Origin: Antedon mediterranea
Lineage: Eukaryota > Animalia > Echinodermata
DNA: 64,000 nucleotides
Direction of reading: 5' to 3'
Assembly (NCBI RefSeq): GCF_964355755.1
Contig: NC_092675.1
Span: forward strand, 19,068,912-19,132,911
Part shown: piece by piece, positions 6,311 to 61,272 of the stretch
Layout of the letters: each line of letters opens with the position of its first letter
Position numbering within the stretch: the first letter of the stretch is position 1
Notes under the pieces: generated by a model
Told to the model about the DNA's origin: nothing
The model's input: the letters and a program-made list of their open reading frames with translations, nothing else
Databases searched by the model: none
Position numbers and translations under genes: made by a program

Positions 6311-7017
6311 TGTTAACTTTGAATAGTATAATGTCGCCCTCTATTTCATGTTTGGTGAGCAAGAGGTGACTTTTCTCCTAGTAAGGTCAGATTGCCATAG
6401 TAACGGGCAGATTGTCTCAGAGTTGTTCTTTGGGATAGTTCATAGCCTAGATAAATACACTAATAGTCAAAAATATGTACTGTAATCTATAGGTTCTGGT
6501 GAAGAAACAGATGTAAGTTTATGATGCTTTATATTTAGATAATATAATCTTTTGTATCATTTAACTGTAGCCTACTAGATAATTACAAATTACTGACTCA
6601 ATTATACTATAATCTAGGCCTAGGCCTACTGTTAAATTGAAGTAATGGTAATACAGTAATGATTAATCGATCATTTTCTATAAATCTAGTTTAATATGAT
6701 TGTTGAGCTATTTAGCTTAGATGTTCCAATTGTTATACAGTACCAATTGATTATTTAATTACAATGACGGCTTTGATTATCCATTAATTTACAGTTTAAA
6801 CCGTTCGATCTATCGTTCGTTCCACTGCTGTGTGTTCGTTCAACATCTATTCATTGTGTGCTCAACCAATTGTTCGACCATTCAACCAATCGTTTTACCA
6901 ATTTGTCAAATCGTTCGTTTCATTGCCGTGTTGAATAAACATTATTTATGTCTATACCTTTGTGAACGCGTTTAATTCGTTTTGACTCCCAGAACCGCAC
7001 GTGACGTCAAGGTTACA
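6311..7017 (+). repeat. 5' LTR (707 bp)
   Basis: Direct repeat of 12771-13472; by eye it differs by 2 substitutions and one 5-bp indel. TATA-like TATAAAT near 6679 and AATAAA near 6934. Confidence 0.97.
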
Positions 7018-7060
7018 TAAGTTTAAAATCAATCTTCTACTGCAATAATCTATCTCTAAG

Positions 7061-10000
7061 ATGTTTGACGTTGAACCAAGTGATTCAGTGAGTTGCGTAA
7101 GCTCCAAACGCTCATCATCGAGCAGCAGATCTAGGATCCGGGTTAAGGCTGAAGCTGCAGCATTAAGGGAACGAGCTGCCAGACAGAAAGAAATGCATGA
7201 CTTGGAAATGCAGGAATTGGTGCTCAAACAAAAGAAGGCGGATGTGGAATTGCAAATTGAAATCGGGGCAATTGAAGCTGCCGACAAAGTTTACAACGAA
7301 GCTGAACAGGACGAGGATGAGGCAGTAGATCGTGAACTCGAAGATCTCTCTCTACCAAAGCTTCAAATTGAAACAACCACTCCCAAACTTCCATCAGGAA
7401 ATCTGCCCGACCAACGATTTGCTCCTGATTATCGAGCAGATTATGTTCCAAAGGAGGAGACAGAACTGTTAGGGAATCCTATGCTGTGGCAGCCTACACC
7501 TCAACCAGCAGTGTTCCAACCATTTAATCTGGATGCTCCTGTATTCCACCAACACAAGCAGATCGATGCCATAGATAGACTGGCATCCACAATGATGAGA
7601 GCACAAGATAAGCAAAATGAAGCATTGAGACAGATCGTCCAACAACAGCAACAAAGTGTTACTGCGCTTACCTTGCCTAACCCGTCAATGAAGTTATACA
7701 GTGGCAATCCTGCTGAATACTGCGAGTTTGTCACTTCATTCAAACATCTTGTTGAGAACAAAACTGTGAGCCAGAGTGCAAGACTGCACTACTTGGTACA
7801 GTACACGACTGGGGCTGTACAAGAGTTGATGAGAAGCTGTCTATCGATGAGTGATGATAAAGGATATGTTGAGGCGAGACGCTTGCTAAAGGAAAGATAT
7901 GGACAAGCATACAAGATAGCTGCTGCCCACGTTCAACTCTTGCTGGATTGGCCGATTATCAAAGTCGAGGATGGCATAGCTCTACAACGCTTCTCTACTC
8001 AACTAACAAGCTGTGCAAATACACTTCAGGAAATTGGATACCTTAGCAAGCTAGATAATCCAGACAATCTTCGGAAAATCATTGAACTCCTTCCGTATCG
8101 ACTAAGGCTAAGATGGCGGGAAGTGGTTGACACTATCATCGTAAAGGAAAAGAGAGATGTAAACATTAAGGATATTACCAAGTTTGTCACCGATAAGGCT
8201 AGGGTAGCAACTCATCCAGTCTTTGGTAAAATAGAGCCAGTGAAGTCTACCAATTCTCCAAATTCGGATAAATTATCGACCAACCACAAATCTAGCAGTT
8301 ATGCCGTTCACAATTCTCAGTCAAACACACCTGTAACATCACAACCAACGTGTCCGCTATGCTGTGAGGACCATTGGCTCTCCAGATGTGAGCAGTTCCG
8401 ACGGAAGTCACTCAACGACCGATGGAAATGTGTAAATGACAAGAAAATCTGTATCAACTGTCTTACAGTTGGACATTTTGTGAAAGATTGTCAAAAGCAA
8501 AGTTTCTGCAAAATATCCGGATGCACGAAGAAACACTCAACATATTTACATCCCAAAGGTGAGACTGCAAGTAATGCTGGTACTGTTGCTGTACAACCAG
8601 TTCAGACATCTCCAGCAACCTTCAGTGGTGAACAGGTCAACATGTCGGCATCGAGAAGCACATCAACCGTTACTGGTCTTGCTGCCGTACCTGTGAGAGT
8701 CAAGGCTCCAGGAAGTGCCAAGCTTGTAGAAACCTATGCATTTCTTGATAGTGGATCCAACACAACTTTCTGCACCACTGGTCTACTAAAGCAATTAGGG
8801 ATATCATCGAATACTGTAGACTTATCATTGACAACCATGAACGGAGTAAATAGACCAATCCAGTGTGAACTTACAAAGTTGGAGATTTTGGATTTAAATC
8901 ATGGACATTCCGTCTTACTTCCAAACGTCTATTCAGTGCAAACCCTACCAATTTCTACCGATACGATCGCTACTCCAGATGACATCAACAAATGGCCTCA
9001 CCTAGCTGGGATTAAAGTAGATAAAATAAATGCAGATATTGGTATTCTCATTGGAAGTGATGTGCCAGAATTGCTACAACCGCTGGAAGTACGCGAATGC
9101 CACGATGGTGGTCCATTTGCCACTAGAACAATATTTGGCTGGGTTGTCAACGGCCCATTGGGAAGGAAGAACTCTGGATCAACACACTGCGCTAACTACA
9201 TTGATTCACATGAAGAGTTGTCAACACAGTTCAAGGACTACTGTAATCTAGAATTCAATGACAGCCTGTACAACCCGAAGGCTGCGATGTCGCAAAATGA
9301 CAAACAGGCATTGCGAATTATGGAAAAAAGCGCTGTTTTGAAAGATGGACATTATGAGATTGCGTTACCATGGAAGTCTTATCCACCAAATCTGAAGACC
9401 AACAAAATACAAGCTGAACGCAGACTTCAGTCCCTCAAACGACGTCTAGACAATGATCCAATTGTATTTGAGAAATATCGCATGTTCATGAACGACTTGG
9501 TAAGAAAGGGCTATGCTGATAAGGTGGAAGTTAATGGTTCGGTACCTGAAGGATGGTACTTACCACATCACCCAGTATTTCATCCTCAAAAACCTGACAA
9601 GGTACGTGTTGTTTTTGACTGTTCGGCGAGATATGGAGGCACATCATTAAACGACCAGCTTCTACAGGGGCCGGACCTTACTAACACACTAGTCGGGGTA
9701 CTAACCCGTTTCCGGCGAGAACAAATCGCTTTCATGGCGGACATTGAATCGATGTATTACCAGGTACGAGTACGAAAAAATGATTCAGACTACCTTAAAT
9801 ACCTCTGGTGGCCAGATGGCAATACCGAGAAGCAGCCTGAAGAGTACAAGATGATGGTTCATCTGTTTGGGGGTGTGTCATCTCCCAGCTGCGCCAACTA
9901 TGCACTAAAACGTAATGCAGAAGACAACCGAGATGACTTTGATGCAGAGACAATCAAAACAGCGAAGGAAAGCTTTTATGTGGATGATTGTCTTCATTCT

Positions 10001-12697
10001 GTAAAGACAGAGCCAGAAGCCAAACAACTGATCAAACAACTTCAGGAACTACTAAACCAGGGCGGGTTCCGTCTGACAAAGTGGACGTCAAATTCAATAA
10101 ATGTTATTGAATCAGTTCCGGATGCCGAAAGGGCAAAATCGGTGAAGGACTTGGATCTGAACTTTGGTGGCATGATGTTAACTGAACGAGCATTAGGTGT
10201 CAAATGGAGCCTGTCAACTGACACATTTGGTTATAGTATCAACAAGAAAGAACGTCCAGCGACAAGACGTGGAATGTTATCAATAACAAGTTCGGTGTAC
10301 GATCCACTTGGATTTGTCGGTCCATGCATCTTGCCTGCAAAGGCCATTCAACAAGAACTGTGCCAAAAGGGTTTAGGATGGGATGACAAGATTCCAGATG
10401 CTTGCAAAGCAAGGTGGGAGGATTGGCTCCAGGATCTTCCTAAGCTGGAGCAGTTCAGCATTCCAAGATGCTTCAAGCCTCTAAACTTTGAAAATGTAGT
10501 TAAACGAGAACTACATCACTTCTCAGATGCTTCAAGTCATGGATATGGTGCAGTATCTTATCTTCGACAAATCAATGTAAATGGAGACATCAGTTGTGCT
10601 ATTGTGATGGCAAAATCCAGGTTAGCTCCTCTCAAGACGATGACTATACCAAGAATGGAGTTATCGGCAGCTGTTGTTTCCACACGATTAGACAAAATGA
10701 TTAAACAAGAACTGCAAACACCTATTGATAGTTGTACGTTTTGGACGGATAGCACATGTGTTCTACGCTATTTAGAAAACAAGGAAACACGATTTCAGAC
10801 GTTTGTAGCTAATCGAGTCACAACCATACTTGATCAAAGTGACGCAAGTCAATGGAGATTTGTGGATGGGTTACACAACCCTGCAGATGAAGCATCAAGA
10901 GGTATGACAGTAAATGAATTACTGATCAATCAACGTTGGAAGGAAGGTCCAGAATTCCTAAAGCAACCTGAGAGGACATGGCCACAAAGACCAGCAAACA
11001 TGGGTGAAATCCCACAAGATGACCCAGAGGTAAAGGCAAAATCCACAGTCTGTGCTACTGGTATAAATGTAATTGACTCGATTTCATCAGTCATTAACTA
11101 CTACTCATCATGGGAGAAGTTGAAGAAGTCGTTTGCATGGATTTTGAGGTACAAAGAAAAGTTACGAGAAGTGGTTCGCAGGCGTAAGGCTGGAGACGAT
11201 GTTTCATTTAATAGAAATGACACAGTTGATCCAATCAATGTTTTGGAGATGAAAGGTGCTGAAATTGCTATCACGAAGCATGTACAGAAATGCTTTGAAG
11301 ACGAGCAAGTTTGCCTGAAGCATGTAAGCCTATCTCAACCCTGCAATACCAAAAAGCAACGAGCACTACCAAAATCCAGCAAGATCTACAAACTCGATCC
11401 CATCTTAAGTGAGGGAGTGATCAGAGTAGGGGGCCGTCTTCAAAATTCACCTATCAACGGTGACATGAAACATCAGATAATCCTACCAAAGAATCACCAC
11501 ATAGTGAAGCTCATTACTACATACTATCACCATTTATCAGGACACAGTGGACTAGAATACACACTGTCCCTAGTTCGACAGAAGTTCTGGCCGATTGATG
11601 CACGTACTGCAGTGAAGAAAGTTCTAAACGAGTGTTTCAGCTGTAAGAGACGCCAATCATCAGTTGGGAAACAAAAAATGGCTTCACTTCCGCAAGACCG
11701 AGTAACACCTTCGAAGCCACCGTTCACGTACGTTGGTGTTGACTGCTTCGGCCCATTCGAAGTAAAAAGGGGGAGGTCAAATGTGAAGAGATATGGTGTC
11801 CTTTTCACATGTCTCACTGTACGAGCAATCCACATCGAAGTTTCAAACTCACTTGACACGGAGTCATTCATGAATGCTATGAGAAGATTCATAGCACGAA
11901 GAGGACAGCCAGAAGAGATTCGATCAGATAATGGAGGAAACTTCAAAAAGGGAGAGAAGGAACTGAATAAAGCAATTAAAGAGTGGAATCAAGGACAAAT
12001 CCATGAATTCTTGTTGCAACGAAATGTGAAATGGTTATTCAATCCACCAATGGGATCTCATCATGGAGGAGTATGGGAGCGCTGTATTCGGACAGTGAGG
12101 AAAGTCATGATGGCTGTGCTGAAACAACAAGTGCTTGATGATGAAGGCCTAAACACTTTAATGTGTGAAGCAGAGGCTATTGTTAATGGTCGGCCGATTA
12201 CTAAGATATCGGATGACCCTCGTGACATGACGCCTTTAACTCCGAATCATTTACTGCTGTTGCGAGGAGGGAACAGCTTACCTCCTGGTAACTTTTCAAA
12301 GGAGGATATTTATCGTCGACGATGGAAACAAGTACAGTACTTATCAAATGTGTTCTGGCGACGATGGGTACGGGAGTATTTACCATCACTGCAACAAAGA
12401 CAAAAATGGAATGTGCAAAAGAGAAACTTTGCTGTAGACGATGTTGTGCTTGTTCTTGACGAAAACACACCACGAAGTTCATGGCCATTGGGAAGAGTTC
12501 TTGAAGTGTACAGCAACCAAAAGGATGGACTTGTACGGTCAGTGAAAGTAAAGACAAACACATCAACGCTTGTGAGACCAATTGACAAACTGGTCCTTCT
12601 TGAGAATGCGAAATATGAACTTTTGAACATTACAGATTGTTCTTCTGCGTTTTATAAGATCCAATTTTGGAATTTATCTTTTCCTTATAAATTTTAA
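7061..12697 (+). CDS. BEL/Pao gag-pol polyprotein (1878 aa)
   Basis: Three Cys/His knuckles (CPLC..HWLSRC, CINC...HFVKDC, C....C...HSTYLH); protease FLDSGS; RT with YLPHH, ADIESMY, YVDD; RNase H FSDAS; integrase HHCC plus DDE (VDCFGP, SDNGGNF, WERC). PR-RT-RH-IN order. Confidence 0.97.
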   Translation: MFDVEPSDSVSCVSSKRSSSSSRSRIRVKAEAAALRERAARQKEMHDLEMQELVLKQKKADVELQIEIGAIEAADKVYNEAEQDEDEAVDRELEDLSLPKLQIETTTPKLPSGNLPDQRFAPDYRADYVPKEETELLGNPMLWQPTPQPAVFQPFNLDAPVFHQHKQIDAIDRLASTMMRAQDKQNEALRQIVQQQQQSVTALTLPNPSMKLYSGNPAEYCEFVTSFKHLVENKTVSQSARLHYLVQYTTGAVQELMRSCLSMSDDKGYVEARRLLKERYGQAYKIAAAHVQLLLDWPIIKVEDGIALQRFSTQLTSCANTLQEIGYLSKLDNPDNLRKIIELLPYRLRLRWREVVDTIIVKEKRDVNIKDITKFVTDKARVATHPVFGKIEPVKSTNSPNSDKLSTNHKSSSYAVHNSQSNTPVTSQPTCPLCCEDHWLSRCEQFRRKSLNDRWKCVNDKKICINCLTVGHFVKDCQKQSFCKISGCTKKHSTYLHPKGETASNAGTVAVQPVQTSPATFSGEQVNMSASRSTSTVTGLAAVPVRVKAPGSAKLVETYAFLDSGSNTTFCTTGLLKQLGISSNTVDLSLTTMNGVNRPIQCELTKLEILDLNHGHSVLLPNVYSVQTLPISTDTIATPDDINKWPHLAGIKVDKINADIGILIGSDVPELLQPLEVRECHDGGPFATRTIFGWVVNGPLGRKNSGSTHCANYIDSHEELSTQFKDYCNLEFNDSLYNPKAAMSQNDKQALRIMEKSAVLKDGHYEIALPWKSYPPNLKTNKIQAERRLQSLKRRLDNDPIVFEKYRMFMNDLVRKGYADKVEVNGSVPEGWYLPHHPVFHPQKPDKVRVVFDCSARYGGTSLNDQLLQGPDLTNTLVGVLTRFRREQIAFMADIESMYYQVRVRKNDSDYLKYLWWPDGNTEKQPEEYKMMVHLFGGVSSPSCANYALKRNAEDNRDDFDAETIKTAKESFYVDDCLHSVKTEPEAKQLIKQLQELLNQGGFRLTKWTSNSINVIESVPDAERAKSVKDLDLNFGGMMLTERALGVKWSLSTDTFGYSINKKERPATRRGMLSITSSVYDPLGFVGPCILPAKAIQQELCQKGLGWDDKIPDACKARWEDWLQDLPKLEQFSIPRCFKPLNFENVVKRELHHFSDASSHGYGAVSYLRQINVNGDISCAIVMAKSRLAPLKTMTIPRMELSAAVVSTRLDKMIKQELQTPIDSCTFWTDSTCVLRYLENKETRFQTFVANRVTTILDQSDASQWRFVDGLHNPADEASRGMTVNELLINQRWKEGPEFLKQPERTWPQRPANMGEIPQDDPEVKAKSTVCATGINVIDSISSVINYYSSWEKLKKSFAWILRYKEKLREVVRRRKAGDDVSFNRNDTVDPINVLEMKGAEIAITKHVQKCFEDEQVCLKHVSLSQPCNTKKQRALPKSSKIYKLDPILSEGVIRVGGRLQNSPINGDMKHQIILPKNHHIVKLITTYYHHLSGHSGLEYTLSLVRQKFWPIDARTAVKKVLNECFSCKRRQSSVGKQKMASLPQDRVTPSKPPFTYVGVDCFGPFEVKRGRSNVKRYGVLFTCLTVRAIHIEVSNSLDTESFMNAMRRFIARRGQPEEIRSDNGGNFKKGEKELNKAIKEWNQGQIHEFLLQRNVKWLFNPPMGSHHGGVWERCIRTVRKVMMAVLKQQVLDDEGLNTLMCEAEAIVNGRPITKISDDPRDMTPLTPNHLLLLRGGNSLPPGNFSKEDIYRRRWKQVQYLSNVFWRRWVREYLPSLQQRQKWNVQKRNFAVDDVVLVLDENTPRSSWPLGRVLEVYSNQKDGLVRSVKVKTNTSTLVRPIDKLVLLENAKYELLNITDCSSAFYKIQFWNLSFPYKF

Positions 12698-12770
12698 CAA
12701 TGTTAGGTTTTTGTTGACATGTTTATTTTTATGTAAAGGCTATCCATACGGTGCCTTTAAGGGGCCGGAA

Positions 12771-13472
12771 TGTTAACTTTGAATAGTATAATGTCGCCCT
12801 CTATTTCATGTTTGGTGAGCAAGAGGTGACTTTTCTCCTAGTAAGGTCAGATTGCCATAGTAACGGGCAGATTGTCTCAGAGTTGTTCTTTGGGATAGTT
12901 CATAGCCTAGATAAATACACTAATAGTCAAAAATATGTACTGTAATCTATAGGTTCTGGTGAAGAAACAGATGTAAGTTTATGATGCTTTATATTTAGAT
13001 AATATAATCTTTTGTATCATTTAACTGTAGCCTACTAGATAATTACAAATTACTGACTCAATTATACTATAATCTAGGCCTAGGCCTACTGTTAAATTGA
13101 AGTAATGGTAATACAGTAATGATTAATCGATCATTTTCTATAAATCTAGTTTAATATGATTGTTGAGCTATTTAGCTTAGATGTTCCAATTGTTATACCA
13201 ATTGATTATTTAATTACAATGACGGCTTTGATTATCCATTAATTTACAGTTTAAACCGTTCGATCTATTGTTCGTTCCACTGCTGTGTGTTCGTTCAACA
13301 TCTATTCATTGTGTGCTCAACCAATTGTTCGACCATTCAACCAATCGTTTTACCAATTTGTCAAATCGTTCGTTTCATTGCCGTGTTGAATAAACATTAT
13401 TTATATCTATACCTTTGTGAACGCGTTTAATTCGTTTTGACTCCCAGAACCGCACGTGACGTCAAGGTTACA
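12771..13472 (+). repeat. 3' LTR (702 bp)
   Basis: Direct repeat of the 5' LTR, followed by TSD ATAGG. Confidence 0.97.
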
Positions 13473-13689
13473 ATAGGTGGGCCATTTGTATGCATAATGA
13501 CAGGTTTAGCCGCTGTTAAGTTGAGGCACTGTGTGTGTGGAACCGGGACAAGATCTTTATTAAATAATTATTACAACACAACAGGATATGCGGTTTCCCC
13601 ACCACCCAGACCCAAACAGCTGATCGTCCACACTGCGCAGTCAGAGAGAGGAGACTGTACAGCATGCACTGTCGTCATGTCTTATTAAA

Positions 13690-14090
13690 TTAGGGCCTAC
13701 TTAGTCCTAGCTAGAGCTTTTAGGCATCTAGGTAGTCCTTCCTACTAGGCCCTAGTACTAGACCTAGGCCTAGGCCCTAGCCGCCTATTTCTATTATTAT
13801 ATATTTTCTAGCCTATCCAGCAGGGCCACCAGACCGTGTCAGTGTGTGTGATATCCTCTACCAAGCCTAAACTAATAAAAGCAGAGGCCTAGCCTAGCTA
13901 GCCGCCTACATATAGGATTAGGCAATATATTACCAAAATAATTGAAAAACACTTGCTTTGTATTCTGATTAAATGTAAAAGCATGTCAAAATTTTCCATT
14001 GCCTCCTCTCCGATCCCTTCAATAATTCTCTCCTCTTCTTTTTTTTCTTTTGTGACTAGTTGTTTTTAAAGAGCGCCACCAACTTGTATA
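13690..14090 (-). promoter_or_regulatory. Probable PPM1K promoter, non-coding first exon and start of intron 1
   Basis: The PPM1K ATG exon is preceded by a splice acceptor (~5848), implying an upstream exon. Candidate donor near 13932; TAGGCCTA-rich tract like that in DCTN4 intron 1; GCGCCACC motif near 14073. Inferred. Confidence 0.4.
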
Positions 14091-14680
14091 AAGGCAAAAA
14101 CAAAACGTAAATCTGCTGTGGTTTTCGAATCACAGATTTAATATAGTGTTTTCGATCCCATAGGCCTATATTAAATGCTTCATTTGAAAAAAAAACATTT
14201 TGGAGATTTTATTTTTCTGATCTGTGGGTGATAGTTGAAATTACTTTGTAAACACTATTCTTTTTTACTCAAAATTGTAATAGGCCTAGAGAGGCATTAA
14301 ATTAAATAATCATATGAAAAATAAAGTAATTAACATTTTGTCACAGCAAAAACATTTTATCCGAAAATAAACTTTTATTTTATTTAATTTTCGCTGTACC
14401 TACAATATAATACTATTGTATATTATTGTGTTTGTTTGTTTGTTTGTAGTGTGACATTTAATTGACTTGAACCCAGGGCGATTGTTAGCCAAACCACCAA
14501 GCATGCACCAAAGCCACAACTTCATAATGTAGCCTGTATTGTCCCCAAAAAACATGAAAACTGAACTTTAATAACAGACTTTCAGTATTTTATTTTGCAG
14601 TTTTAAAAGTTATTCCCTTCCTTATAAATACAAACAAAACAAAATAATGATTTCACTTATATTATAAAAGGTGGTTAATT

Positions 14681-15894
14681 AGATTATATGCATTCAATTA
14701 TCTTGAAAAATCAGTTTCATCCAGCTAAGTCAATTTTTCAGCAGAGTATATACCTTATGGCCAGGAATCGATGTGGTTATGTTTTCACGGTGCGCAATAA
14801 AAAAATATGCGGTCTACGCACGATTTAACGAAATCACGTTTGTAATCATATTATCTTCATGAAGCATGAATCACAATTAAACAAAATTTGGTACTCATAC
14901 ATTTCAGGTCATATTTCATCATAATGGCAATACAAGTACGCGCACTTAAAATTTTCGATGAAATTAGAGTAGGCCTACGTTTCAGGATTGCCATGAGTGC
15001 GCAGATTTTTGCACGCGCACTGCGCATTAAACGGTAATATGCACTCTTTTTGACTGTTTTACAACCTTTCTTTAATAATATCATCATATTTGAGTTACTT
15101 TTCAATTCGAAATTGCGTTATACGAGCACGTCAAAAGTGACAGGCTACGCACGTGTAAGTTAACAAAATAGTGAAAATATGTTAAATTTTAAAATTAATA
15201 TAGATCGTTAGAATGCTCGGGACACCTATTTTGCAATTCAAGTGATGTATCATATGTGATGATTACTGCCTTTCCGCTGAAAAGTCTGCCGACATTTCTG
15301 CCTGGCTGCTCCGTAAATCTCTTTTATCATATGTATGATTTATTATAAAATTAAGAGAACAAAAGGTGATTAAGTCATCATTAATTGCATATTCAATTTA
15401 ATAAAATTAATTTTGACAATCAAACTAAAACAATCTCTACTAAAGTGGTTACTGTAAATACAAGGAGGAATCTTTCTTCAACTTTTAGTCAGCTGTGTAT
15501 GGCTGGGTGGTCTGTGCTCGTCAAGGTACGAGGTCGAGTCTCAATTGGGAAACAAAAAGAAATAAGATCTTTTTTTTCCGTATTATTTGTTCAATTTTAT
15601 TCCTTAGTGTATAGATTATACACATGATTTATAATTAAATTTAGATAAAAAGTAACTTATGTCTTTATTATTATGTAACAAATGTGGTTTATGATATTAT
15701 ACACAGATGGATCTTTGATCGGATTGTGATACCGGCTATTGTATTTGCGTTAGCAAGATCCTATCATATAATATAAATAAACAAAGATTCCGACAAAATC
15801 AATCAATCAATATATCTTTTAAAAATCAATTATCTTTATTTAAATCAATGTATGTAACCTATAATTCGTCATAGTGACGAATAAAATCTTACTT
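14681..15894 (+). mobile_element. Helentron/DINE-1-like non-autonomous element, copy 1
   Basis: 5' subTIR AGATTATATGCAT; 3' inverted subTIR ATGTATGTAACCT (15848-15860), then hairpin ATTCGTCA-TAG-TGACGAAT and TT; body homologous to 19159-20177. Confidence 0.65.
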
Positions 15895-16135
15895 AAACTT
15901 ACTTATAATTCCTACCTGTACTCCTGATCTTTATATCATATTAATTTAATGTTGTCATGCAATCCTTCAAACAATATATAAAACGTACTTTTTATATATA
16001 TTTTCACACTCAATAAGTGGTCTACATCCGTGACAGCACAAATGTGTGGTATATAGTGTGCGATTGTACTATGGTACAAGATGCATGATGCTGTTAGCCA
16101 TCTTGGTACCAGTTTGGCTACCAATGATGTTGACA

Positions 16136-16180
16136 CCAGTCTACCACGATGAGGTAGCATCTCCGACTTCAGACTGGGAT
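16136..16180. repeat. Hairpin-forming terminus of another interspersed repeat, abutting a T-tract
   Basis: CCAGTCT..CTACC-N7-GGTAG..AGACTGG followed by poly-T; the same sequence occurs inverted at ~28985-29021. Confidence 0.6.
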
Positions 16181-17010
16181 GTTTTTTTTTGTTTTTTGTT
16201 TTTTGTTTTTTGTTTTTTTTAAATTCCTTATCGAGCTAAAACTTATATTAACTTAAATAAGTGAAGATTATTGAGTAAATTACTTATTTTAACTATTTAC
16301 TATACAATAATATAGGCCTAAAACCTATTATATACGAAATTCATAATGAAAAATATTTTAATAATTACAATATTATTTTTGGGGGGTTTTTTTTTTTAAA
16401 TTATTTCTTACTAACTAAATCAACTTACGATAACATTTTTTTAATTAAAATTTATTATTAAAATATAAACTCGTAAAAAAATTAAACCAAAAACTTATAT
16501 CAATTAAATATTATTAACAATTTTTTGGAAAACTAAGTAAATAATGTTGTTTTTGTTTTTTCCTTTTTTTTTTGTATTGCTTACTATCTAAAAACTTACA
16601 TTAGCATAATAACGGGAAGTTTAATTACTGAAACAAATTACTTTATTTTAATCATTATTATCAATAATCTATTTTTAATTTATTATTGGTATTATTAATA
16701 TCCTCATTAGAGCTTTTTTTTATCATTATAATGTAACAATAGCATATTGTTTTTAATCCACATTACTTATCATTATTACTGTTTTTCTAAGTACAAGTGC
16801 TGCAGTAATCTACATTTTTAAAACGTTATTTTATATATTTATTACCTTAGTACTTAGATATTGCACATCTTAGAAAATCTATTTAGTTTAACTTTTCTTT
16901 AATCAATTTAATCGTCTTAACATTCCTGTAACTATATTCTAGATCTAATCCCTTAAACTGTTTTTTTAATGATGGTTACTTAAATTATGTTTGAAATTAT
17001 CTTAATTTGT

Positions 17011-17879
17011 TTAAGAACTATCGTCATTATTCTCAAAATAGAATGAGTCTTGTAATTCAAATTTCTCAAGAATTGCGTTAATTATTAAGTAAGCTATTGC
17101 TGATGGCTTTACTGTTGTAAGAGATATTTTATTTGTAATCAAATATTTGACAGATTCGTGTCTCACTCTTTCTATTCTACGTTTGTTGTTGTTGGTTGTA
17201 GCTTTACTGATAGCAATATCGCAATAAATGTGAACAAAATCAAGACAAGTGACACTATTGATATTAAAGTTTACTATCTGTAGTATTTTAAATTCTATTT
17301 GGGCATTTTTTTTAGGATTAAAGAAGCCAAGATTCCGGAGGCAGTCACAAGCATAAGGGATGATGTGTTTAGATTGGTATCGTTCAGCACATTTCAATGC
17401 AAGGCAAAATGATGCAATTGCATATTCTTCGAGATCTTCAAGTTGAAATGCTGTGTAATCAGAGATTAGTACATTTTCTATAATTGTAAGGCTACGATGA
17501 ACAATATCATAATCGATCATGTATTCATAACGTATGAGTTCAGATCGAATATTACATAAAAATTCTACCATATGATCTTTAACTGATTGTGATTCAAAAT
17601 GTGCCCATGGATTTTCAGATATTTTTTCACGATTAATTAATGAATTAAAATATTCTTTATTAGATTCAAGTTCCAAATTTTCATTTGAAATGTCGTTAGA
17701 ATTGCTATCATCACTACCTGGAAAATGAAACAAAACATCACCATGTCCTACTACTACAACAGTGCTACTATTAGTACTACTAGACTTTTCTCCTATGCTG
17801 CTACTGCCACTGTTGTTGCTACTAACACTAACTACTCTCACCACTATTGCTACTAGTGCTATTGGGCATAGTGCTGCAG

Positions 17880-17936
<57 letters not shown>

Positions 17937-18686
17937 TCACTATCACTGTCAATACTAATAATGATGTCACTATCACTACTCCTATCTCTACTTATTATAA
18001 TAGGCATATCATTTGTATTTGGAGACATTTGATCTTCACTAGGCCAACTACTATCACTATCACTGTCAATACCAATAATGATGTCACTATCACTACTCCT
18101 ATCACTACTTATTATGATAGGCATATCATTTGTATTTTGAGACATTTGATCTTCACTAGGCCAACTACTACTATCACTATCACTGTCAATACTAATAATG
18201 ATGTCACTATCACTACTCCTATCACTACGTACTATGATAGGCATATCATTTGTTTTATGGAGACAACATTTGATCTTCACTAGGCCAACAACTACTATCA
18301 CTATCACTGCTGCTACTAATAATGATGTCACTATCACTACTTATATCACTACTTATTATGATAGGCATATCATTTGTATTTGAAGACAACATTTGGTCGT
18401 CACTAGTAGGCCTATTTAATTCATGATTAAAATGACAATAATTGATATCAGCTGATTTGTTTTCCGATTTTATAAGTTTATCTAATTCGTGTAAATTACA
18501 AGTTGGGTTAACATTAGCGTTTCTTCTGACATAAGGACGCGCCCTGTTTCTAGGCCTAGACCTTCTATTATTCCTCACCTGGAGGAACCTAGCGTACTTA
18601 GCGGCGGGATACTCATTTGGTCTCACCGCATTCTGGGCTTCTTCTAAAGAAGCATTATATCTTCTTTTAAATATCAACTTTGCCAT
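17011..18686 (-). pseudogene. Divergent cyclin with basic N-terminus and Ser/Asp/Ile-rich tandem repeats; ~557 aa if two +1 frameshifts (18257, ~17830) are corrected
   Basis: Cyclin-box pattern: EYFNSLINREK, VKDHMVEFL (cf. MRAILVDWL), LEEYAIASFCLALKCAE (cf. LQLVGVAAMFIASKYEE), EFKILQIVNFNINSVTCLDFV (cf. ERKILKVLNFDL..PT..DFL), KPSAIA. ORFs 18686-18255, 18337-17828 and 17976-17011 step through successive frames. Confidence 0.75.
17880..18412. repeat. (ACT)n microsatellite plus ~4 tandem units of ~117-123 bp
   Basis: Units repeat ACTATCACTATCACTGTCAATACTAATAATGATGTCACT...GGCATATCATTTGTATT...CATTTGATCTTCACTAGGCCA; on the minus strand they encode ~39-41 aa units. Confidence 0.92.
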
Positions 18687-19158
18687 AGCAGATGATGTAA
18701 GTATAGCAAACGTAATAGGAAATAGATGTATAGTATTTCCAAACTGAATTGCACGGTAAAAGCGGTTTTATTTCGTTTTACATCGATTCGGATTGAAAGA
18801 ATTTTTCATTCTGACTTAAATTTGGAATAGTCGTTAGTTATTTTCGAATATTTGATGACGTAACAATGGTTGCGCTGTTCTATTGTAAGCGCGGTGAGCG
18901 CACTAACTAGCCAATTGAATACCACTATTGTTACTAATACTGCTCTTGGAAACTATACTCTCTTAAATGCGCGCGCACTACACAGCGTCATCTCTCTGTA
19001 TACATCAAAGATTTTATATAGTTGTCGGCGGCTTTATCTCACTGGTATACATCTGTTAATTAGAAAGAGCGCGTTCTTTAGACTGGACGACAAACCAACA
19101 TTTTTCTTTAAATAAAAACCAATGGTTCAACATTGGTTCATGTTGCTATATTATTATT

Positions 19159-20177
19159 AGGTTATATGCATTATCATGCATATAACCTTTGATTCTGTCA
19201 GAATCTTAGTTTATTTATTCTTTCCTTAGCACTATTTTGTCCGTCAATTATCTTGATATCAGTTTCATCTAGCTAAGTGAATTATTATGGCAAGGAATCG
19301 ATGTGGTTATGTTTTCACGGTGCGCAATCAAAAATTACGCGGTCTACGCACGATTCAACGAATCACGTTTGTAATCATAATCTTAACAACAAGCATGAAT
19401 CACAATTAAACAAAATTTGGTACTCACACATTTTAGGTCATAGTTCATCATATATGGCAACAATTACGTGTGTAGCGCATATAACGCATGCGTATATGCG
19501 CGCTTAAAATTTTCAAAATTGTCAACATTTATTTTCGAAGAAATTAGAGTACGTTTCAGACAATTTTAAGCCTTTAAAAAATTGCCATGAGTGCGCCGAT
19601 TTGTTCACGCACACTGCGCGGTAAACGTTAATATGCATTCTTTTTGCCCGATTTCTGTTTCACAACCTTCTTTAATAATATCATCATATTTGATTCATCT
19701 TGAAATTGCGTTATACGAGCACGTCAAAAGTGACAGGCCAGCTACGCACGGTGAAAATATGCTAAATTTTAAAATTAATAAGCCTATAGGCCTACTAATA
19801 GATCGTCAGAATGCTCGGGACACCTATTTTGCCTTTCATTTTTTTAAAAGTGTACCACCGGTATGTAATATGTATGATTTATTATTAAGAGAACAAAAGT
19901 TGATTAAGTCATCATTAATTGTGCATATTCAATTTAAAAAAATTAATTTCGACAATCAAACAAACTATGACATTTTCTTGGGCCGAAATAACAAACGTAA
20001 TATTAACTTTATTCAGTAAAAATGATATACTTTGACAGTGCGTCAAATTTTCAAATCTTTTAAGTTGTCATGATAGTAAAACATTATAATTCATGCGGTA
20101 TGCAATAACTGTACCTGCACCAAAGTGGAACTGCATAGTAAATACACAGTTTCTTCAACTTTAAGTCTGTGCTCGTA
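19159..20177 (+). mobile_element. Helentron/DINE-1-like non-autonomous element, copy 2 (3' end not found)
   Basis: Perfect 13-bp palindrome AGGTTATATGCAT-TATC-ATGCATATAACCT at 19159-19188; ~700+ bp diverged direct repeat of 14681-15540. Confidence 0.65.
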
Positions 20178-21726
20178 TCTATCTATTTTCTTTTTTTGAT
20201 CCAATTTGTTGTCAAAATAAATAACTATTATTACTTTATGTGACACTAAAATATGACATTTATAGAAAAGAAAATAATTTTTTCTTTAGGTTTTGATTTT
20301 AAATTTATAATTATATAATTTTAAAAGGCTGCCTGTTGACGCTTTGCAGCGTTCAGGTAGTATGTGTTGACGGATATTGCGTCGTGTTATTGGTCACTGA
20401 GCCTGATTAAATTGTTGATGTGAGTACTACAAACAATATTTTGTTTTGCAAGGTTTTGTTTTGATAGTTTAAAAGCAATTACATACTAGTAATTAAATAG
20501 ATTAGTGCTTTGAAAAGATGTGTTATAATACTATACTGACGAATAGTTGATTTAAAAGCTAGATTAACACGCATAAACCATAGTCCTACTAAGGATTTTC
20601 AGGCCGAGAGTTCGTAATTTTAAGCCTTCTGCACACACGCCGTCGGCAGGTTATCCATGCATGACATTGAGAGATTTCCTGTTGTTGCTTCTTCTTGTCA
20701 AGCCTAGAGGAGGCCTAGCCTTCACTTTAGTTACATGTACGTACGCGGTGTTTCGAAAACAGAGACCTCGAAAAAAGGGGGACCCAATTAAGGCTCATGA
20801 TACCCCTCTCTTTTCGAGTGTCACTTTAAATAATGTGTATTAATATCCCGAGTTCGAGGATACACCTTCGTCCTTACCTTATTTATATGAATATGATGAG
20901 TTCATTTTTTTTAATAAAGAAATAATATAATACATAATAATATTATAAATATTATAATACGCATCACTTTCTTTCATCATGGAGGTATGAAATTAGATTT
21001 TATCATTTATTTTATACCTCCATGCTTTCATGTTATATTTAAATTTTTTTTATATAATCAAAATGATACTAGCCTAGTGCGTATTTTTAGACTAGCTATG
21101 TCTATCTACAGTAGTTTTTACAAAAAAAACATATCAATTCTCAATTCCTTTTCCATCAATTTTTATTTATTTATGATGCATTCCATATAATAATAATAAT
21201 AAGATTTATATGGCGCACATATCCACAAAAATGCTCAAGGCGCTTGTGAAAAACCATGAAAAAACATAAAAATATAAACCTTGAAACCAAAATATAGTAT
21301 TTTTTTGTTAATGAGAATATAACTAGCCATATCTTAGAAATAAAATAAAATACAAGAGTTAAATAAATGTATGGCCAATGTTACGGTAATTATGAAAGTC
21401 TAACAAATTTCTAAGACTGTACAATATTTTAATGTTTATTATGAAAATTGTATGCGTCGCAGAAAGGACAGTAAATGGACATGACTTTTAAGAAGGTTTA
21501 CGTATTGTAATATTCTCCTCATTTAGAAGAGATTTTAAAATTTGTTTTGTATTATTATGTTACAGATAGTTGTTTTAGATGACTGAATAATTATAGAATT
21601 TTAACTGCAAATTAATTAAATAAATAATAAAACTAACTATTAAATGTTGTGGACGAGACAATTATGAAATTTGAAACGTAAATAGGAAATTTAATAAACA
21701 AAATATGTGTTATAAAATTCTTGACT

Positions 21727-22010
21727 ATAGAGTTCTGCGGTGCTGACATCACGATGATAGGTGGCGCTGCATGGTTTGCTAGCCAACCAAAAAATGCGTT
21801 TAACCTGCCTGAATGACTCCTAGTTATAAAAACATTAACTAAAATTTCAAAAGATCATTAAATATCTGTTTTTAATACGGTAATCTATTTATTCTTCAAC
21901 TACAGTTTAAGTTTAAACAAAAAAAAGTTAAGATACATAATTTGATAGAAACACAAATCTATAGTGGTTATCGCCATCTACCGTTGTGACGTCACACCGC
22001 AGAACTCTAT
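21727..22010. mobile_element. MITE, superfamily unassigned
   Basis: Inverted termini ATAGAGTTCTGCGGTG...CACCGCAGAACTCTAT, with further imperfect pairing internally. Confidence 0.75.
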
Positions 22011-22059
22011 GTACTATAGGGACATAGAGTAACTATATCTGGCAAAAAAATGTTTAAAA

Positions 22060-22440
22060 GATTCATTCAAATATCTTGGAGTTGTGTTTGATTCTCAATT
22101 AACATGGTCAGAATGAAACGAATTGGTGTTATCCGACGTGTAAAGTACTAAATACCAGGAAATACTCTCAAAATGTTAGCTAATGCTTTAGTAATACAAT
22201 ACCTTATTTTAATTACTGTGACTGTGTTTGGTCAAATTGTAATGCAAATCTTGCAAACTCTCTCCAAATACTGTTAAACAGACTTGGAAGAATTTGACTT
22301 TCCACAGATATTAAAACACCAGTTAAGATATTTTTAAGTTCTTTGGGGTGGTGTACACTTAGTGATAATTGGGAAGGACAATTACTTATAATGTTATTCA
22401 AGTGTCTAAATGATCATGCTCCATGCTACTTATTAAACAA
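22060..22440 (+). mobile_element. Decayed CR1/L2-type LINE fragment (RT C-terminal region)
   Basis: Interrupted peptides KYLGVVFDSQLTW, LANALVI and YCDCVWSNC, typical of CR1/L2 ORF2. Confidence 0.7.
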
Positions 22441-23010
22441 ATTTTGAATGTTTTAAATTAATGCTTTAATCCCTTTTTTTCACTTGTGCTCCATTTTTTT
22501 TCTAACCCTAACCCACTAAAAGGAATATAAAACAATTGAGTAAAAATATTAATAACACTGTTTGTTAGACAGCATTTTATTGTAATTGTTTCCTTTAACT
22601 ATAAATTATAGAAAAGAAACAATAGTTGCTACGGTATAAATAGATGAACATATGCTAAAACACCTGTCTAATACAGTCAAGAGGGTGTTTTTAAATACTT
22701 TCATTTAATAAACCAAATAAATATTAAATACCTGGCAATACCTAAAGTATAGTTCATGTTTAACAAAAATAATGATTTCACTTTTATAAAAACACAAAAT
22801 TGTTTTTTTGTAAAATCAATGCTGATAAACAATTGTTATATGTAAACAAATAATTTTTTTTTTTGATCCAATTTTTTGTCGTAAAAAATAAAGATTATTA
22901 CTTTATGTAACATTAAAATGGCATATTCGACAACAACAAATGAGACAAATTTGTTTTTTTAAATTATGTTCAGGTCAAACAAACAGATGTCAAGTATGTA
23001 AATTGCAGAG

Positions 23011-25778
23011 ATGGTCATTAGTGTTGATGGCCAAGATAATTTGGTTGTTGTCACGGCAACGTCATTAACAACTGCTGTCATTTTCGTAGTAATGATTCTA
23101 AGCTGTGTCACTTGCAAATGCTGGTAAATATCTCTATATTATTATTTATTCTTAAAAATATTAATAATTATTTATTAAGCGCATCAATAAATAAGTAATA
23201 ATACAGCCTGGACAAATCCTGATAATATACTAATTAGAAAAAAAATGACATTACTTTCAAATATGTTTTTTAAAAAAATGAGATTACTTGTTCAAATATG
23301 TTAAAAATGTATTATACCTTGTATTTAAAAAGCATGTTTGCTTTTTGTTTGAGGAAAAAATGGTACCCAATCAAATCATTTTTTTGTTGTATTAAACCTT
23401 AATTGATAGAGGGTGACCCTAAACAGCATATGCTGCCCTCTTGATGAGTGACAGTGGTTGTGTGTATACTAGTACAACGGGGTAACCTCCTACTTGTTTC
23501 GAAAGATGTTCTTTAAAGTGAACATGAGCCAGATGTTAGACTTTCAATCAATCAAAATCAACATTTATTTCCAAAATGGTGGCGTCACCAAAAAAGCAAA
23601 GCTTGTGTCAGGGACGCCCAAACAAACCAATCAAAAGCAAACAAAACATATAAATAAGACATAGAAATGAAAATAACAATAAAACGTAAAGCGGTACATT
23701 TCAATTGTAGTATAAATCATATTAAATACATTTTCAATATTTCTAAAGGTAAATATATTAACAAGAAACATGGCAGCTAAGTATTGTTTGATAATAAATA
23801 ATATTTTGCCGTTTTTAAAAAATTATTTACATTATGTATATTTTGTAACGAATGAGGCAAAACATTCCAAAGTTTTGCACCAGAGTATCTAATACTTTGG
23901 TGAAATATTGTAGTCCTGTGTTTTGGGAGATGAATATAAGAGGATGACCTAGTGTCGTAGTTATAGAAAGTAACATTAAATTTAAACATATCGTAAAATC
24001 TATGAGGATAATTATGATTAATACAGTTATGAACTTGCTCCAAGTCTGTATTATTGTCTTTTTTTGTCATTCCACACGTCGTCGTTTTGATTTTTGTCTG
24101 AAAATACACTCAAGTAATACACGTATGAAATGCCATATGTGCAAAAATATTTATATTTTAACTAATATTAAGACAAAACTCCGTCTGGAGCCCAGACTAG
24201 CCAGGTGTGTGTGTACACTGGACCTATGGTTTATAGTCCTTATCGTGGAAAAACTTGTTCTACCACCAGAACCATGGAGTGAGTGAGGCTCGAACCCTTG
24301 CCGATATTAATATGGCAAGGTATTATGTTCCACTGTCTTAACCGCTTGTCCACTCACGTAATGTATATTCTTGTATTGCATGTATAAAGTGTTGTATTGC
24401 AGTACTTAATTATTTTCAAGATTTGTTATGAAATATAATTCATTGGTATTTATTCATTAAAAAAAAAGATAAAAACATTGCAGGCCGGAAAAATGCTAAA
24501 TTTTATTTCAATTTACAAAATATGTATAAAATTGGTTAAAATTACTTTTAAAAATTTAAAAGAATTACTGCTATGTGTCATAAAAAACAAATTGAACTAC
24601 ATTAAAATGCAAAATTATATTAAAATGCAAAATTACAAGGATGACAATTGTAAACAAATACTGTATTTATCTCTTTTCTTCCAGGAGGCGGTTTACAAAA
24701 AAAGATGTAGTTGATGATGAGGATAGTCCTGATGAAGTTTATACAAACCCTTCATTTGATGACGCACCTCAGAAAACTACTGTAGAGGTGATGTACAATA
24801 TAAGTATAGTTACAATTAGAAGAGTAACATATGTGTTGCAAATGCCTATGTTTCATATCAAATTAATAATATGAATTTAAAACACAAGTGACAATATTAA
24901 TATATATCTGTATGGGAAAATAGTATGTTTATTACATTCATTTCGTAACATAACATATGTTTTTTTTAATATGTATATAGAGTACAATAGTTTCTATCTA
25001 ATCTATGCTGCTTTTGGGATGTTAAATTCTTGTCTATTATGTTAAGAAATGTCAGCGTTCAATTTTAATTCTGCCTTTAAATGATCAAAATATGGGCCAG
25101 CTACCAACCACCAGTTACTGTATCCGCTCTATAAAATACAGCTTTCCGTGAAGCCTGGAAGCTGCTCTATCTGACATCAGAGGTTTGGGTCTGCTGTTTT
25201 GACCTCATTCAACTTTGACTCACTTTCTCCATGTCTTCTTCTTCATGTTTTCTTCATTTTTTCAGACAAAGAGGAAAAAGTTGGGTTCTTCTGTTGTTAC
25301 AAATTCACCGATCAATTCAATTGAACCATACCAAGAAATAGCAGAAGGAGTAGTGTTACAGAATAGGTTTACAAATGAAAAGAAAGAAAACTTGCAACAA
25401 CTTAATGAATTTAATTCAAAAAATGGAGATGTAAAATCAAGTAAATCTCCTGACGATAAACCGGATACGGAAAGAGTTAGTCAGAGTGAGCATTCATATT
25501 CATCTAATACGCCGACTATTCCTGCAGATGCTGTGTCAAACTCAAGCACCATCATTGTTAGTGTGGAGGTGCATTGTACAAACGTTGAAAACGGCAAGCT
25601 TGGTGTATCTGGAAACATTAGTAACTCGCCGAAACAAAATAGCATTTTAGAAAACCCAAGAGGTGTCGACGACAATGATAGGAATGGAATAGCAGTTCAT
25701 ATCAACCCATTTGCAGTAGAACGACTAGAAGAAAATATGAGAAAGGATAAAAATTCTGGCATGAGCATTGCATTATAA
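23011..25778 (+). CDS. Uncharacterised type III single-pass membrane protein (~242 aa) with adaptor-like layout; exons 23011-23123, 24685-24787, 25266-25778
   Basis: Three GT-AG exons join in frame; in-frame TAA upstream of the ATG; hydrophobic segment LVVVTATSLTTAVIFVVMILS, then CVTCKCWRR, then a polar tail. Confidence 0.75.
23393..24358 (-). mobile_element. tRNA-derived SINE interrupted by a CR1/L2 LINE 3' fragment (~23545-24010)
   Basis: Minus-strand A box TGGACAAGCGG and B box GGTTCGAGCC near 24350-24285; LINE C-terminal peptide SIRYSGAKLWNVLP with AATAAA and a (TTGA)n tail. Confidence 0.65.
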
Positions 25779-26062
25779 AATATTGAATGTCTTACCACTG
25801 CAACTGTCTATTCTATTCTACAACTTGTTCAATTTCTTGTATACTGCCATTATTATACCGGTATAAATACAGTATATATATATTTGCTTGAAGATGCTAA
25901 AAGCTGTACAGTATACTCAACAATCCCACCAACTCTCTCCCCTATTCCCTCAAATTAGTGACATTTTGTATAATTAAAAATTCATAAAACTGACCAACTC
26001 TTTAGCCGGTCATCACAGGGATCAATGAATGTTCAATTTGACCATTTGATTCTAGGGAAGAG

Positions 26063-26147
26063 TGAAATGGGGATCAGCTCAAAAGTTTCACAAATGTGTG
26101 ACGTATCCGTTTTCGTTATTGTATTCGTAAGGTTGCGAAACCTCCCT
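26063..26147. mobile_element. One-ended fragment of the 3513-4014 MITE family
   Basis: Reverse complement of the left ~85 bp of the 3513 element, ending GCGAAACCTCCCT. Confidence 0.75.
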
Positions 26148-28955
26148 ATTAGTATAAAATAGCTGAGATGCTAACAGGGACCGAACACAATGCAAAGCTT
26201 ACCTCTGTAACAGTGTTTTTATGTGCTGTACTTGTACTGTATATAGAAATATTGATTAAACAATGATTACTGGTAATTATGTATAAATGAAGACTTTTTG
26301 ACATAAAATCATGCACGTAAAATTAATCAAATTAAAAGAATATGCAGTTTGTTTTACAGACATTGTGTGCAAGTTGGGTGTATGTAGTTATGTGTATGAA
26401 GGAATAAAATAATTTTGTATTTGATTATTTTTTCATTATTACTGATTTTAATTTGATTGTTGTTAATATTTATGTTGTATTAATTTATGTAAACATATTT
26501 AAAATGTTAATATTTATAATTGAAAAGAATGAACTTAAAATCCAAAATATGAAAAGTATTATTTAAAAAAGGGTTTATTTTAGTATCATTTGGCTAATTG
26601 AAAATAATGTATTTAAATTTAATAAACTGTATCAAATATGTAAAAGGAGAAATATTCTATATATAATTACTCGTAATAGTATTAATTACTTGATTTTAAT
26701 TGTATTTAAGTTCAATTCAGTATTTAAATTATTTATATAATATCTTTAGTAATCGTTAATCGTCTCTAGTAAATTATTTGATTTATGATTTACTGTAAAA
26801 AATGATTAAACATATGAATTTAACTAATTAACACATGTTAAGGGCCTTTAACACCCGCTCAGGTTCTGGTGCAGTCCCAATGTTTGTTTTCATGACACAC
26901 CACATTATGCACATAGCGTGTGGCACGTCACGAAAACAAAAAGTCACTAATGCTGAGTATGACATGAACTTAAACTTGAGTCGGACCAGAGCAGGTGTGA
27001 AAGACCCTCATATGGCACCAGAAATATTCATTTGGATATATGTTCAAATTAAAGATTAGTTTAAAGGTTGTAAATTCTATAAGGTACATTTAAATATTAT
27101 ACTGTACACCATAATTATATATTCATTGGATTTACAGGCCTGTACACTTAGTCGTAAATGGATTAGTGAGAGGAGTGTCTTTTTAATGAAATAAAATCAA
27201 ATTGTATAAGCATAAAGTATTGTCATATCGTGCCATATTTGAATATGGCATATCAATTGTATAGGCTTATTGTATTGTCACATTTCTCAATTTGAATATG
27301 TACTCTAACACTTTATACTAACTGGTGCTATTAGTATTAAAATCAGCAATCAATGTCATTGTTATTACTGTACTAAAAAGCATTTTTCATTAGGAAATCA
27401 AAAGCTGGAGATAAGGTAAAACACGCTTATGATAAAATTCCAAAGTTGCTTTCAGATCAGAATGTTATTTTACAGAGTAATTGTGAATTATGACCCAATG
27501 GCATGGCATATCATTTTTTTCTGAGGTAAAGAACGTCCTAATTATGGCAAGGCTGCTACCCATAAATAGAGGGTTTCCTATAACTTGTAGGATGTTAAGC
27601 GTACACCTATAAATACTAATGTATATGTCAATGATTTAAAAATGCACATAACATGTGCCTTATTAATAATTTGGTTTGGGTACAATTCATCTTTAAAAGT
27701 TCTTTTTGGATAATTTTTGAATTTATTTTTATGTTACATTTGTTTTCAGAAGAGTATTGAAAGGTAACATTCTTGTTTATCGACCATTGTATTATAAATG
27801 TCGCCATGCAAAGTAATAATGTATAGTAATAATATTATAATCAGATAGTTTTTTTTATATATATATAATAATTAATAAAGCCTGGTTATATATATTTTTT
27901 TCTATAAATAATACATTATTGATTTGGCTGTTGCTACTTTATTTTTTAAATTACAAAAAGCTTAGTTGGTGCTAAATAAAGGGCAAAAGCTACCATTCTA
28001 AAAAAACTATGCAAATATATGTACATTGTATTAATTGTATAAAATATATACAAAATGTAAAATCTTTTGGTGCAAAGTAAGTTTGAAGATCGTTTTTTAA
28101 ACAGGTATTATTACAGAGGAACATCACTTAGACACCTACAGTATGACGGCTGATTAAGTGAATACATTACCGTAGTGAATTTGTCATACATGTATGATGT
28201 AGTCAACTCTCCTAATACAACTCTCTCTCTGAAAACCAAAAACTCTTTCAAAACTAGACTGTTTTTGTATTGAGGGCAAAAAGGTCCCAATTCTAAAACA
28301 CAATTAGTCCAGATATATTGGCCAGCCAGAGGGAGAGATAACTGTATCATATTCCCTTCCAATAAAAAGATCTAAGAATGCATATATTTTTTTGTAAGAT
28401 GAAAAAAAAATGTGGGTTTTTTGGTCAAACCAAAATGTAGTAAAAGATGAAAGGGATTTTTAAAAATTATGTCTTAAATATATATATTGTAGTAGTATAT
28501 TTATAGAGTTTATAGAATATAGTTTGTACTGTACAACCTGCAATCCAATGTATTAAATTGTATTTTGGACAAACTCTACTTGCTCTGATGAATGAGACAT
28601 AACACATTACTCCTTTTCAGACAACCATCTTGTATCATGTTCGGTGCCTAGTAACTTTGTAAAATATTAAGCCTTTACATGAATGGTTTGGGTTGATGAT
28701 GAATGTATTGTTAAATGGTATGGATTGAGGACTTTTGGCAGACTTGGCTTGCCATACTCTGGCCTTTTTTTCCCTGGTACTATACTTTTTCTGTTATTAT
28801 GTAATAATTTTCTTATAATGTGAATATTGGGACACAAAATGGTACGCTTCAAACAATAATTGACTGTTCTCAGGGCTTCTTGCTTTAAATTAATAAAAAG
28901 AAATTGGACACAAAAGAGTGTAATTGTTGATTCTTTGAATGATTACCTAGTGTTA

Positions 28956-29077
28956 AGCTTTGTCTACACTATTAAACAAAAAAAAAACATCCCAGTCTGA
29001 AGTCGGAGATGCTACCTCATCATGTGCCCATATGGACATGTCATATCACTACTATATTTGATAGTGTAGACAGAGCT
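28956..29077. mobile_element. Harbinger-like MITE copy carrying a fragment of the 16136-16180 repeat terminus
   Basis: AGCTTTGTCTACACTAT...ATAGTGTAGACAGAGCT termini, with internal AAAACATCCCAGTCTGAAGTCGGAGATGCTACCTCATC. Confidence 0.7.
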
Positions 29078-60598: not shown

Positions 60599-61272
60599 AT
60601 GTATTTTTTTTCTAAATTATTGTAAATAATTGTGATAGAAGTGATATTGAATTTATTAAAAATTGTATAAATTATAAAGTAAATAACTGTTTCCATTTAA
60701 ATTTAAGAAGTTATTCATATAAATATTTTTATTGTAACCATATACATATATACATTCATAAACATCTAACTGTAATACAAGAGAACCTTTAATAGATTAA
60801 AAGAAATAAAATGGTTCCAGTTTAAATAAAAATCCTGGAAAACTCTTAAACACTTAACTGTATATAACATACCAACACTAAAGATACACCTGCAATAGAA
60901 CAAATATTTAGTGTATTTTTAAAATGTAAATTATTGTAATTGTGACTAAAGTGATAGCTGAATTACCGGTATTATGTTAAAACGTCGTAAGGTAAATAAA
61001 TGTTTCTATTTATTGATATTGAAAAGCATGTATTAATTATATTTTGTTAATGCTCATTCATATAGAAACAAAACTTCTTTGATTTAAACTACATATTCTT
61101 TGGCATCAATGGTATTCAAAACATTCAAGATAATAATTAATAGATTGAAAGAAACAATGGTATAAGTATATATAAATAAAGGCATGCATTAATAAACACA
61201 AATATATATAAAAACAACTATAGTAGAAAGTATATTGCACAGATTAGCACAATAAAAAAATATATCAAGGAT

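Follow-up and report, generated by a model that had tools for sequence, protein, structure and literature searches.

Cyclins, of which that of walleye dermal sarcoma virus is a viral example, contact the CDK through a Lys in helix 3 and a Glu in helix 5, and they normally choose their substrates by means of a small docking groove. Metazoan cyclins fall into 16 subfamilies (PMC3923393), and the RxL recruitment site includes a Trp, which is W217 in cyclin A (PMC6170502). In RNF4, spaced SUMO-interacting motifs (SIMs) confer avidity for SUMO chains (PMC3901395), and phosphorylation of Ser beside a SIM can strengthen SUMO binding (PMC11409511). The ULP-like Kaonashi genes carried by MULEs in Arabidopsis are described as amplified transposon cargo whose expression is low or cannot be detected (PMC6117577). 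Here, we describe a minus-strand locus in which SIM-like repeats lie ahead of a divergent cyclin domain; its features are listed in Table 1 by their position in the window, by which we mean the whole 64,000-nucleotide stretch analysed. Our preferred reading, to which we assign a probability of about 0.5, is that the locus belongs to a small crinoid gene family present in several copies and is itself broken and likely decaying, and that an intact member would likely serve as a SUMO-chain-binding nuclear CDK adaptor.

Table 1. Position, strand and supporting evidence for features of the cyclin locus and its flanks
Feature	Position	Strand	Evidence
First frame: ATG, Arg-rich NLS-like segment, repeat unit 1, stop (143 aa)	18255..18686	-	ORF reading
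First frame break, at the unit 1/unit 2 boundary	18250..18257	-	ORFs, unit alignment
Four repeats of ~39 codons; per repeat, two Ile-rich cores followed by Ser/Asp tracts	17927..18406	-	tandem-repeat scan, alignment, SIMa
AGT microsatellite read as poly-Ser, followed by a Ser-rich linker that ends in the second frame break and stop (17828-17830)	17828..17936	-	
Strong acceptor-like site, needs phase-1 donor	17717..17737	-	splice scoring
Divergent cyclin domain, from an N-terminal helix through a full first box to a shortened second box and the stop	17011..17700	-	profile, ESM, alignment
Multicopy unit in organism A (window-like); extends further left in the relative	~16580..19150	.	depth profiles, joints
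13-bp-stem hairpin at near end (start) of upstream high-copy repeat	19159..19188	.	z -7.85, 0/200 shuffles
High-copy interspersed repeat, upstream of gene	19190..20171	.	self-comparison, depth
Second, diverged copy of high-copy repeat	~14694-15497		self-comparison

The initial annotation treated the locus as one fused open reading frame running from 18686 to 17011 on the minus strand. That span is 1676 nt, which is not divisible by 3, and the parts lie in three frames instead. The ATG frame yields 143 aa before its stop at 18255. A second minus-strand frame, closed by a stop at 17828, contains the poly-Ser together with repeat units 2-4, and a third holds the cyclin part, ends at 17011 and has no ATG upstream of helix 1. 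A fused protein would need two frame changes in the assembled copy, so this copy cannot encode the NLS/SIM/cyclin fusion and does not have the unbroken reading frame of a functional gene. Several elements recognized earlier are nonetheless in place: the ATG at 18686 stands in good context, with G at both -3 and +4, the basic segment after it is present as an Arg-rich stretch, and 19 AGT units in a row, read as Ser, make up the poly-Ser. An open run of 95 codons (18400-18686) was equalled in length by 9 of 1000 shuffles, and the N-terminal piece (18255-18686) gave no family or look-alike in family, protein and viral-contig searches. No stop interrupts the cyclin part over 235 codons, whereas 1000 shuffles gave open runs averaging 64 codons, the longest being 130. 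Of the three minus frames across the repeats only one is open, having no stop in 107 codons where the others have 5 and 48, and the ATG reads in the same frame as unit 1, which suggests that a single ancestral ORF likely joined the basic N-terminus, the SIM-like repeats and the cyclin.

The repeat array has a period of 117 bp, with 3.8 copies and 90% matches, and at the protein level the units are 81-86% identical to unit 1; the period, the copy number and the unit alignments all agree with the four repeats of about 40 aa reported at the outset. About eight SIMs had been proposed in this array. SIM-like cores are indeed present, but the SIMa consensus, as printed in PMC3395311, fits only five of the eight, with no match in 18,587 background residues from other open stretches, and a looser scan with a pattern of our own fits seven. 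The arrangement of a phospho-SIM, in which a SIMa hydrophobic core is followed by acidic or Ser residues, was found for five of the eight cores, and the first two frames contain 11 S/T-x-x-D/E sites. The repeats are built of AGT/GAT-rich DNA, and the Ile/Ser/Asp tracts could therefore stem from low complexity. The cores are thus a good match to the SIM motif embedded in low-complexity DNA, with SUMO binding predicted from the motif.

It is conceivable that the locus is alive, either because the frame breaks are assembly errors or because the repeats constitute an intron and the acceptor at 17717 yields a plain divergent cyclin. Both breaks fall within repetitive DNA, and the acceptor, which could let the repeats be spliced out, is one of the window's five top-scoring acceptor sites on the minus strand. 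However, the better donors of the ATG frame, at 18578 (score 8) and 18626 (score 6), are phase 0, whereas the acceptor would require phase 1, for which there is only a weak donor at 18499. Furthermore, the first break differs from the sister units by more than one letter. Together with the behaviour of the window alleles described below, these observations make a live locus very doubtful.

The evidence that the third frame is a cyclin comes from several comparisons. In ESM Atlas features, the domain matches Cyclin_N clusters with a score of 0.95, a level that shuffled proteins attain about once per 100, with 197 of 256 features shared and all ten of the best named matches in one family or clan. 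For a profile, comparison cyclins were fetched from viral contigs by motifs, and of 16 translated candidates nine were set aside, six because they were not cyclins, two for long insertions and one as a duplicate. Of the seven kept, four were confirmed individually as Cyclin_N, and a profile built from six of the seven together with the query found human cyclin A2 at 1.6e-53. The seven-cyclin profile scores 12.8 bits (P 3.6e-6) over most of the length of the domain, a value reached by none of 2000 shuffles and compared with 1.4 for the reversed sequence, and the domain ranks best of 202 window stretches, the next unrelated one scoring 4.6 bits. Pairwise comparisons with the seven were above chance for five (z 2.5-5.1) and at chance for two, and hhalign gave E 0.24 with a five-sequence profile and E 7.4e-4 with seven. 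Identity to six aligned cyclins is 12-20%. Homology to the cyclin box is weak, yet well above shuffles, and the cyclin call made initially stands on the ESM features, the profile and hhalign. Judged by its sequence, the domain is a true but very derived cyclin, with a pattern nearest the A/B/D/E group.

The Pfam HMM check for Cyclin_N and Cyclin_C that the initial annotation proposed failed to return a cyclin match, even at E 10. Likewise, the cyclin part had no match in NCBIfam or among PDB sequences, none among 1.84 billion representative proteins, and none among proteins of 125-2000 aa in a set of 5.8 billion, in keeping with the earlier remark that no standard cyclin class is recognizable; similarity placed the domain in none of the 16 metazoan subfamilies. 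No relative was found in viral contigs or in metagenome contigs, the latter also searched by DNA pattern. Because the protein set, which includes a RefSeq protein of Antedon mediterranea, gave no match to the cyclin part, no annotated paralogue is apparent; cyclins below Pfam detection are missed by annotation. Single-sequence AlphaFold2 models are of low confidence (pLDDT 46.5 and 56.3), with helix boundaries that fit a cyclin. Six fold searches with these low-confidence models gave nothing significant, although the weak Foldseek matches repeatedly include cyclin and TFIIB chains, all at E above 0.5.

Numbering residues from 17700, Lys103 and Glu136 are invariant in the seven-row alignment, for which three of the comparison cyclins had been fetched with a motif containing the Lys, and they match the conserved Lys of helix 3 and Glu of helix 5. 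The retention of both CDK-contacting residues, as originally read, is therefore confirmed against real cyclins. The replacement of the MRAIL Arg by Lys is less secure because registers compete: it is the best ungapped register, at 10.1 against 6.4 for one that keeps the Arg, but the HMM chooses a third. In all three helix-1 registers the Trp of the RxL site is absent, and a Gln that is invariant in all seven cyclins aligns with Glu in the domain. The fold had been called complete; in the alignment the first box is full but the second is not, and there the stop falls ~30 residues past the Pro-Ser motif, soon after the third helix, leaving the box ~48 alignment columns shorter than in full-length cyclins. 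With regard to CDKs, two scans for PSTAIRE-type kinases found nothing and a third found mostly giant-virus kinases. Viral-contig kinases with CDK-like C-helix motifs occur at L036:675-1631 (-) and L050:744-1682 (-), in a set of 53 loci made up largely of other kinases.

An exon of the neighbouring phosphatase gene is 99% identical to a RefSeq protein of the crinoid Antedon mediterranea. Public contigs from six of nine listed runs were aligned to the region. Compared with the window over its single-copy flanks, organism A (run X2) departs at 7 of 4162 bases and organism B (run X7) at 127 of ~2707, whereas cover of organism C (run X9) is too thin for it to count as a third species. The gene is multicopy, with about 2-5 copies in organism A and 10-22 in its relative, as given by summed contig depth, a rough measure, which relative to single copy is 2.2-5.5-fold in X2 and 10-22-fold in X7. 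Within the gene, many sites carry a letter in the window that most contigs of A and B do not share. Among the listed differences from the majority in the coding span, 3 of 27 are synonymous, compared with a neutral expectation of 18-22%, as expected of a decaying pseudogene, and there is no sign of purifying selection on the window copy. Contigs of run X1 carry the window letters at some sites at low depth (186 of ~3100-3800 at 17422-17457), which fits one real locus among several. Both results argue against a live locus, given that the substitutions in the window copy look neutral and that its alleles, some of them shared by X1 contigs, are not all errors. An intact copy was not seen among the public contigs, none of which spans the gene. 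Depth over the gene in run X5, guessed to be RNA, is 0.04-0.18 of that in X2, like that of repeats (0.06-0.22), and is uninformative for expression.

The same data bear on whether the whole family might be dead, that is, the remnant of an ancient mobile element or gene fragment that was amplified shortly before the two organisms split. This would agree with a window copy that is broken twice and has no synonymous excess, with the missing annotated protein match, and with the divergent gene copies, at 86-92% identity, that are also present among the contigs. Nevertheless, the cyclin motifs, the ATG and the 235-codon open run survive in DNA of 30% G+C. In addition, gaps within the coding span of the listed contigs number mostly 0 or multiples of 3 (the exceptions are one contig with 8 and contigs extending into the flanks), against gap counts of 8-25 in the flanks, although the in-frame pattern could also come from triplet slippage. 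High-depth contigs of organism B are only 0-2 letters from the window over 120-210 bases in several places, and are far closer to it than is the single-copy DNA of B. The closeness of these dominant copies may reflect selection, recent spread, or the merging of decayed copies into a common majority during assembly, the last being how a dead family would account for near-identical dominant contigs. We consider it unlikely that the family is dead throughout. On the improbable selfish-element reading given below, the family may still be spreading, since the dominant copies in the two organisms appear far more alike than their single-copy DNA.

The flanks bear on how the gene may have been carried. 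The gene sits between two copies of a high-copy repeat with a depth of ~1000-2500 times single copy. These were rejected as LTRs, since they agree at 71% across 643 columns, contain many indels and are not near-identical direct terminal repeats like the 99% identical LTRs of the neighbouring BEL element. Other gene copies (X1, X6) join 18997/18998 to 19089-19152, and these joints, together with the hairpin at the repeat end, indicate that the gene and the repeat end may travel together. An inverted 30-bp match between 15773-15802 and 19189-19218 scores 48, barely above the 45 obtained in shuffles, and no 14-mer is shared between the gene flanks. Neither a transposase, nor terminal repeats with target duplication, nor a viral gene was found around the gene, and Rfam gave nothing over 12000-32000. 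The selfish-element origin raised initially thus gains from the multiple copies and the flanking high-copy repeat, but not from any transposase or terminal repeats with target duplication. Most likely, the family would have been dispersed as cargo in linkage with the upstream high-copy repeat. A bolder version, in which the poly-SIM cyclin belongs to a crinoid selfish element, substitutes SUMO docking for RxL docking and sends CDK to SUMOylated silencing complexes in order to switch them off, is in our view improbable.

Other elements lie nearby. Downstream of the cyclin stop is an old direct duplication (16200-16314 and 16550-16671, 74%) that is AT-rich and has an A-rich tail on the minus strand. 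A 50-bp element with a T-rich end forms an inverted pair at 16145-16194 and 28974-29024 (96% identity), and depth near 16085 reaches ~400 in each of X2 and X7, about ten times the single-copy level. An apparently intact BEL/Pao LTR retrotransposon at 6311-13472 (+), with a 1882-aa frame containing protease, reverse transcriptase and integrase domains and with 707-bp LTRs, is likely a very recent insertion; just downstream of it, a PPM1K-like gene has its first coding exon. Probable exons of a gene with a hydrophobic segment, read by eye, are located at ~23011-23124, 24686-24789 and 25267-25778 (+), the last without a Pfam match. If the first exon of the plus-strand gene is near 13700, the cyclin unit lies in an intron of that gene. 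Further along are exons of an eIF4E gene (31644-33159, minus strand), a 21-bp tandem array (37243-37723, 22.9 copies, 96% matches) that is open in several frames, and a Harbinger-type transposon (59031-62152) in which a DDE_Tnp_4 nuclease gene (+) faces a Myb/SANT gene (-).

A viral source, also raised in the initial annotation, would make the gene an endogenised one from a large DNA virus or retrovirus of echinoderms, whose SIM cyclin would have countered a SUMO-based nuclear defence. Echinoderm viruses are poorly sampled. The gene is intronless, AT-rich and extremely divergent, and one IMG/VR cyclin (L004) likewise has a short second box. Moreover, viral cyclins (PMC6170502) and viral phospho-SIM proteins, such as ICP0 (PMC9430112), are on record. 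However, no viral gene lies nearby, the ORFs in 12000-24000 other than the gene pieces, their antisense shadow and the BEL polyprotein all being short (≤142 aa), no relative turned up in viral contigs, and predicted viral structures gave no significant match to the low-confidence query model. Viral descent is accordingly a reading of low probability.

Under the preferred reading, an intact member of the crinoid family would enter the nucleus through its Arg-rich segment, and phosphorylation of the S-x-x-D sites by CK2 would raise its affinity for SUMO. By analogy with RNF4, the spaced cores would then bind SUMO chains avidly, while the retained Lys/Glu face of the first box would bind and activate a host CDK. 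Since the Trp and Gln of RxL docking are lost, the SIM array would take the place of that docking, and SUMO would select the CDK substrates. The window copy itself probably performs none of these steps. The architecture looks new, as seen through a dead copy, and its carrier could be a mobile element, a host family or a virus.

The initial claim that no cyclin with tandem SIMs has been described held up in the full-text literature searched, which includes few subscription journals. The cyclins of gammaherpesviruses, walleye dermal sarcoma virus and giant viruses resemble the window gene in being intronless and divergent and in that they could redirect host CDKs. They differ in that no sequence link to them was found and the window gene is without viral context, and to our knowledge no viral cyclin carries a SIM array. 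As with Kaonashi, a SUMO-pathway-like gene has been amplified in a genome, although the Kaonashi genes encode a peptidase C48 within a defined transposon, whereas the cargo here is SIM-like repeats and a cyclin. Group I (A/B/D/E-like) cyclins, with Cyclin_N (PF00134) and Cyclin_C (PF02984), share with the window domain the helix order, the pre-box helix, the helix-3 Lys, the helix-5 Glu, the Thr/Phe after that Glu and the Pro-Ser motif of the second box. In contrast to them, the window domain is 12-20% identical and below Pfam detection, the Trp and Gln of the RxL site are replaced, the second box is short, a SIM-like array stands in front, and the gene is multicopy and intronless. A cyclin that lost its groove and gained a SUMO-reading array would represent a new way to aim a CDK and, if true, would tie cell-cycle kinases to SUMO-based silencing. 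The SUMO-targeted ubiquitin ligase RNF4 likewise has several spaced SIM-type cores beside an enzyme-recruiting module, but at the window locus the effector is a cyclin and not a RING, SUMO binding is predicted from motifs, and the cores arose by recent 117-bp tandem duplication. A SUMO-targeted CDK activator of this kind would be the kinase counterpart of the SUMO-targeted ubiquitin ligases.
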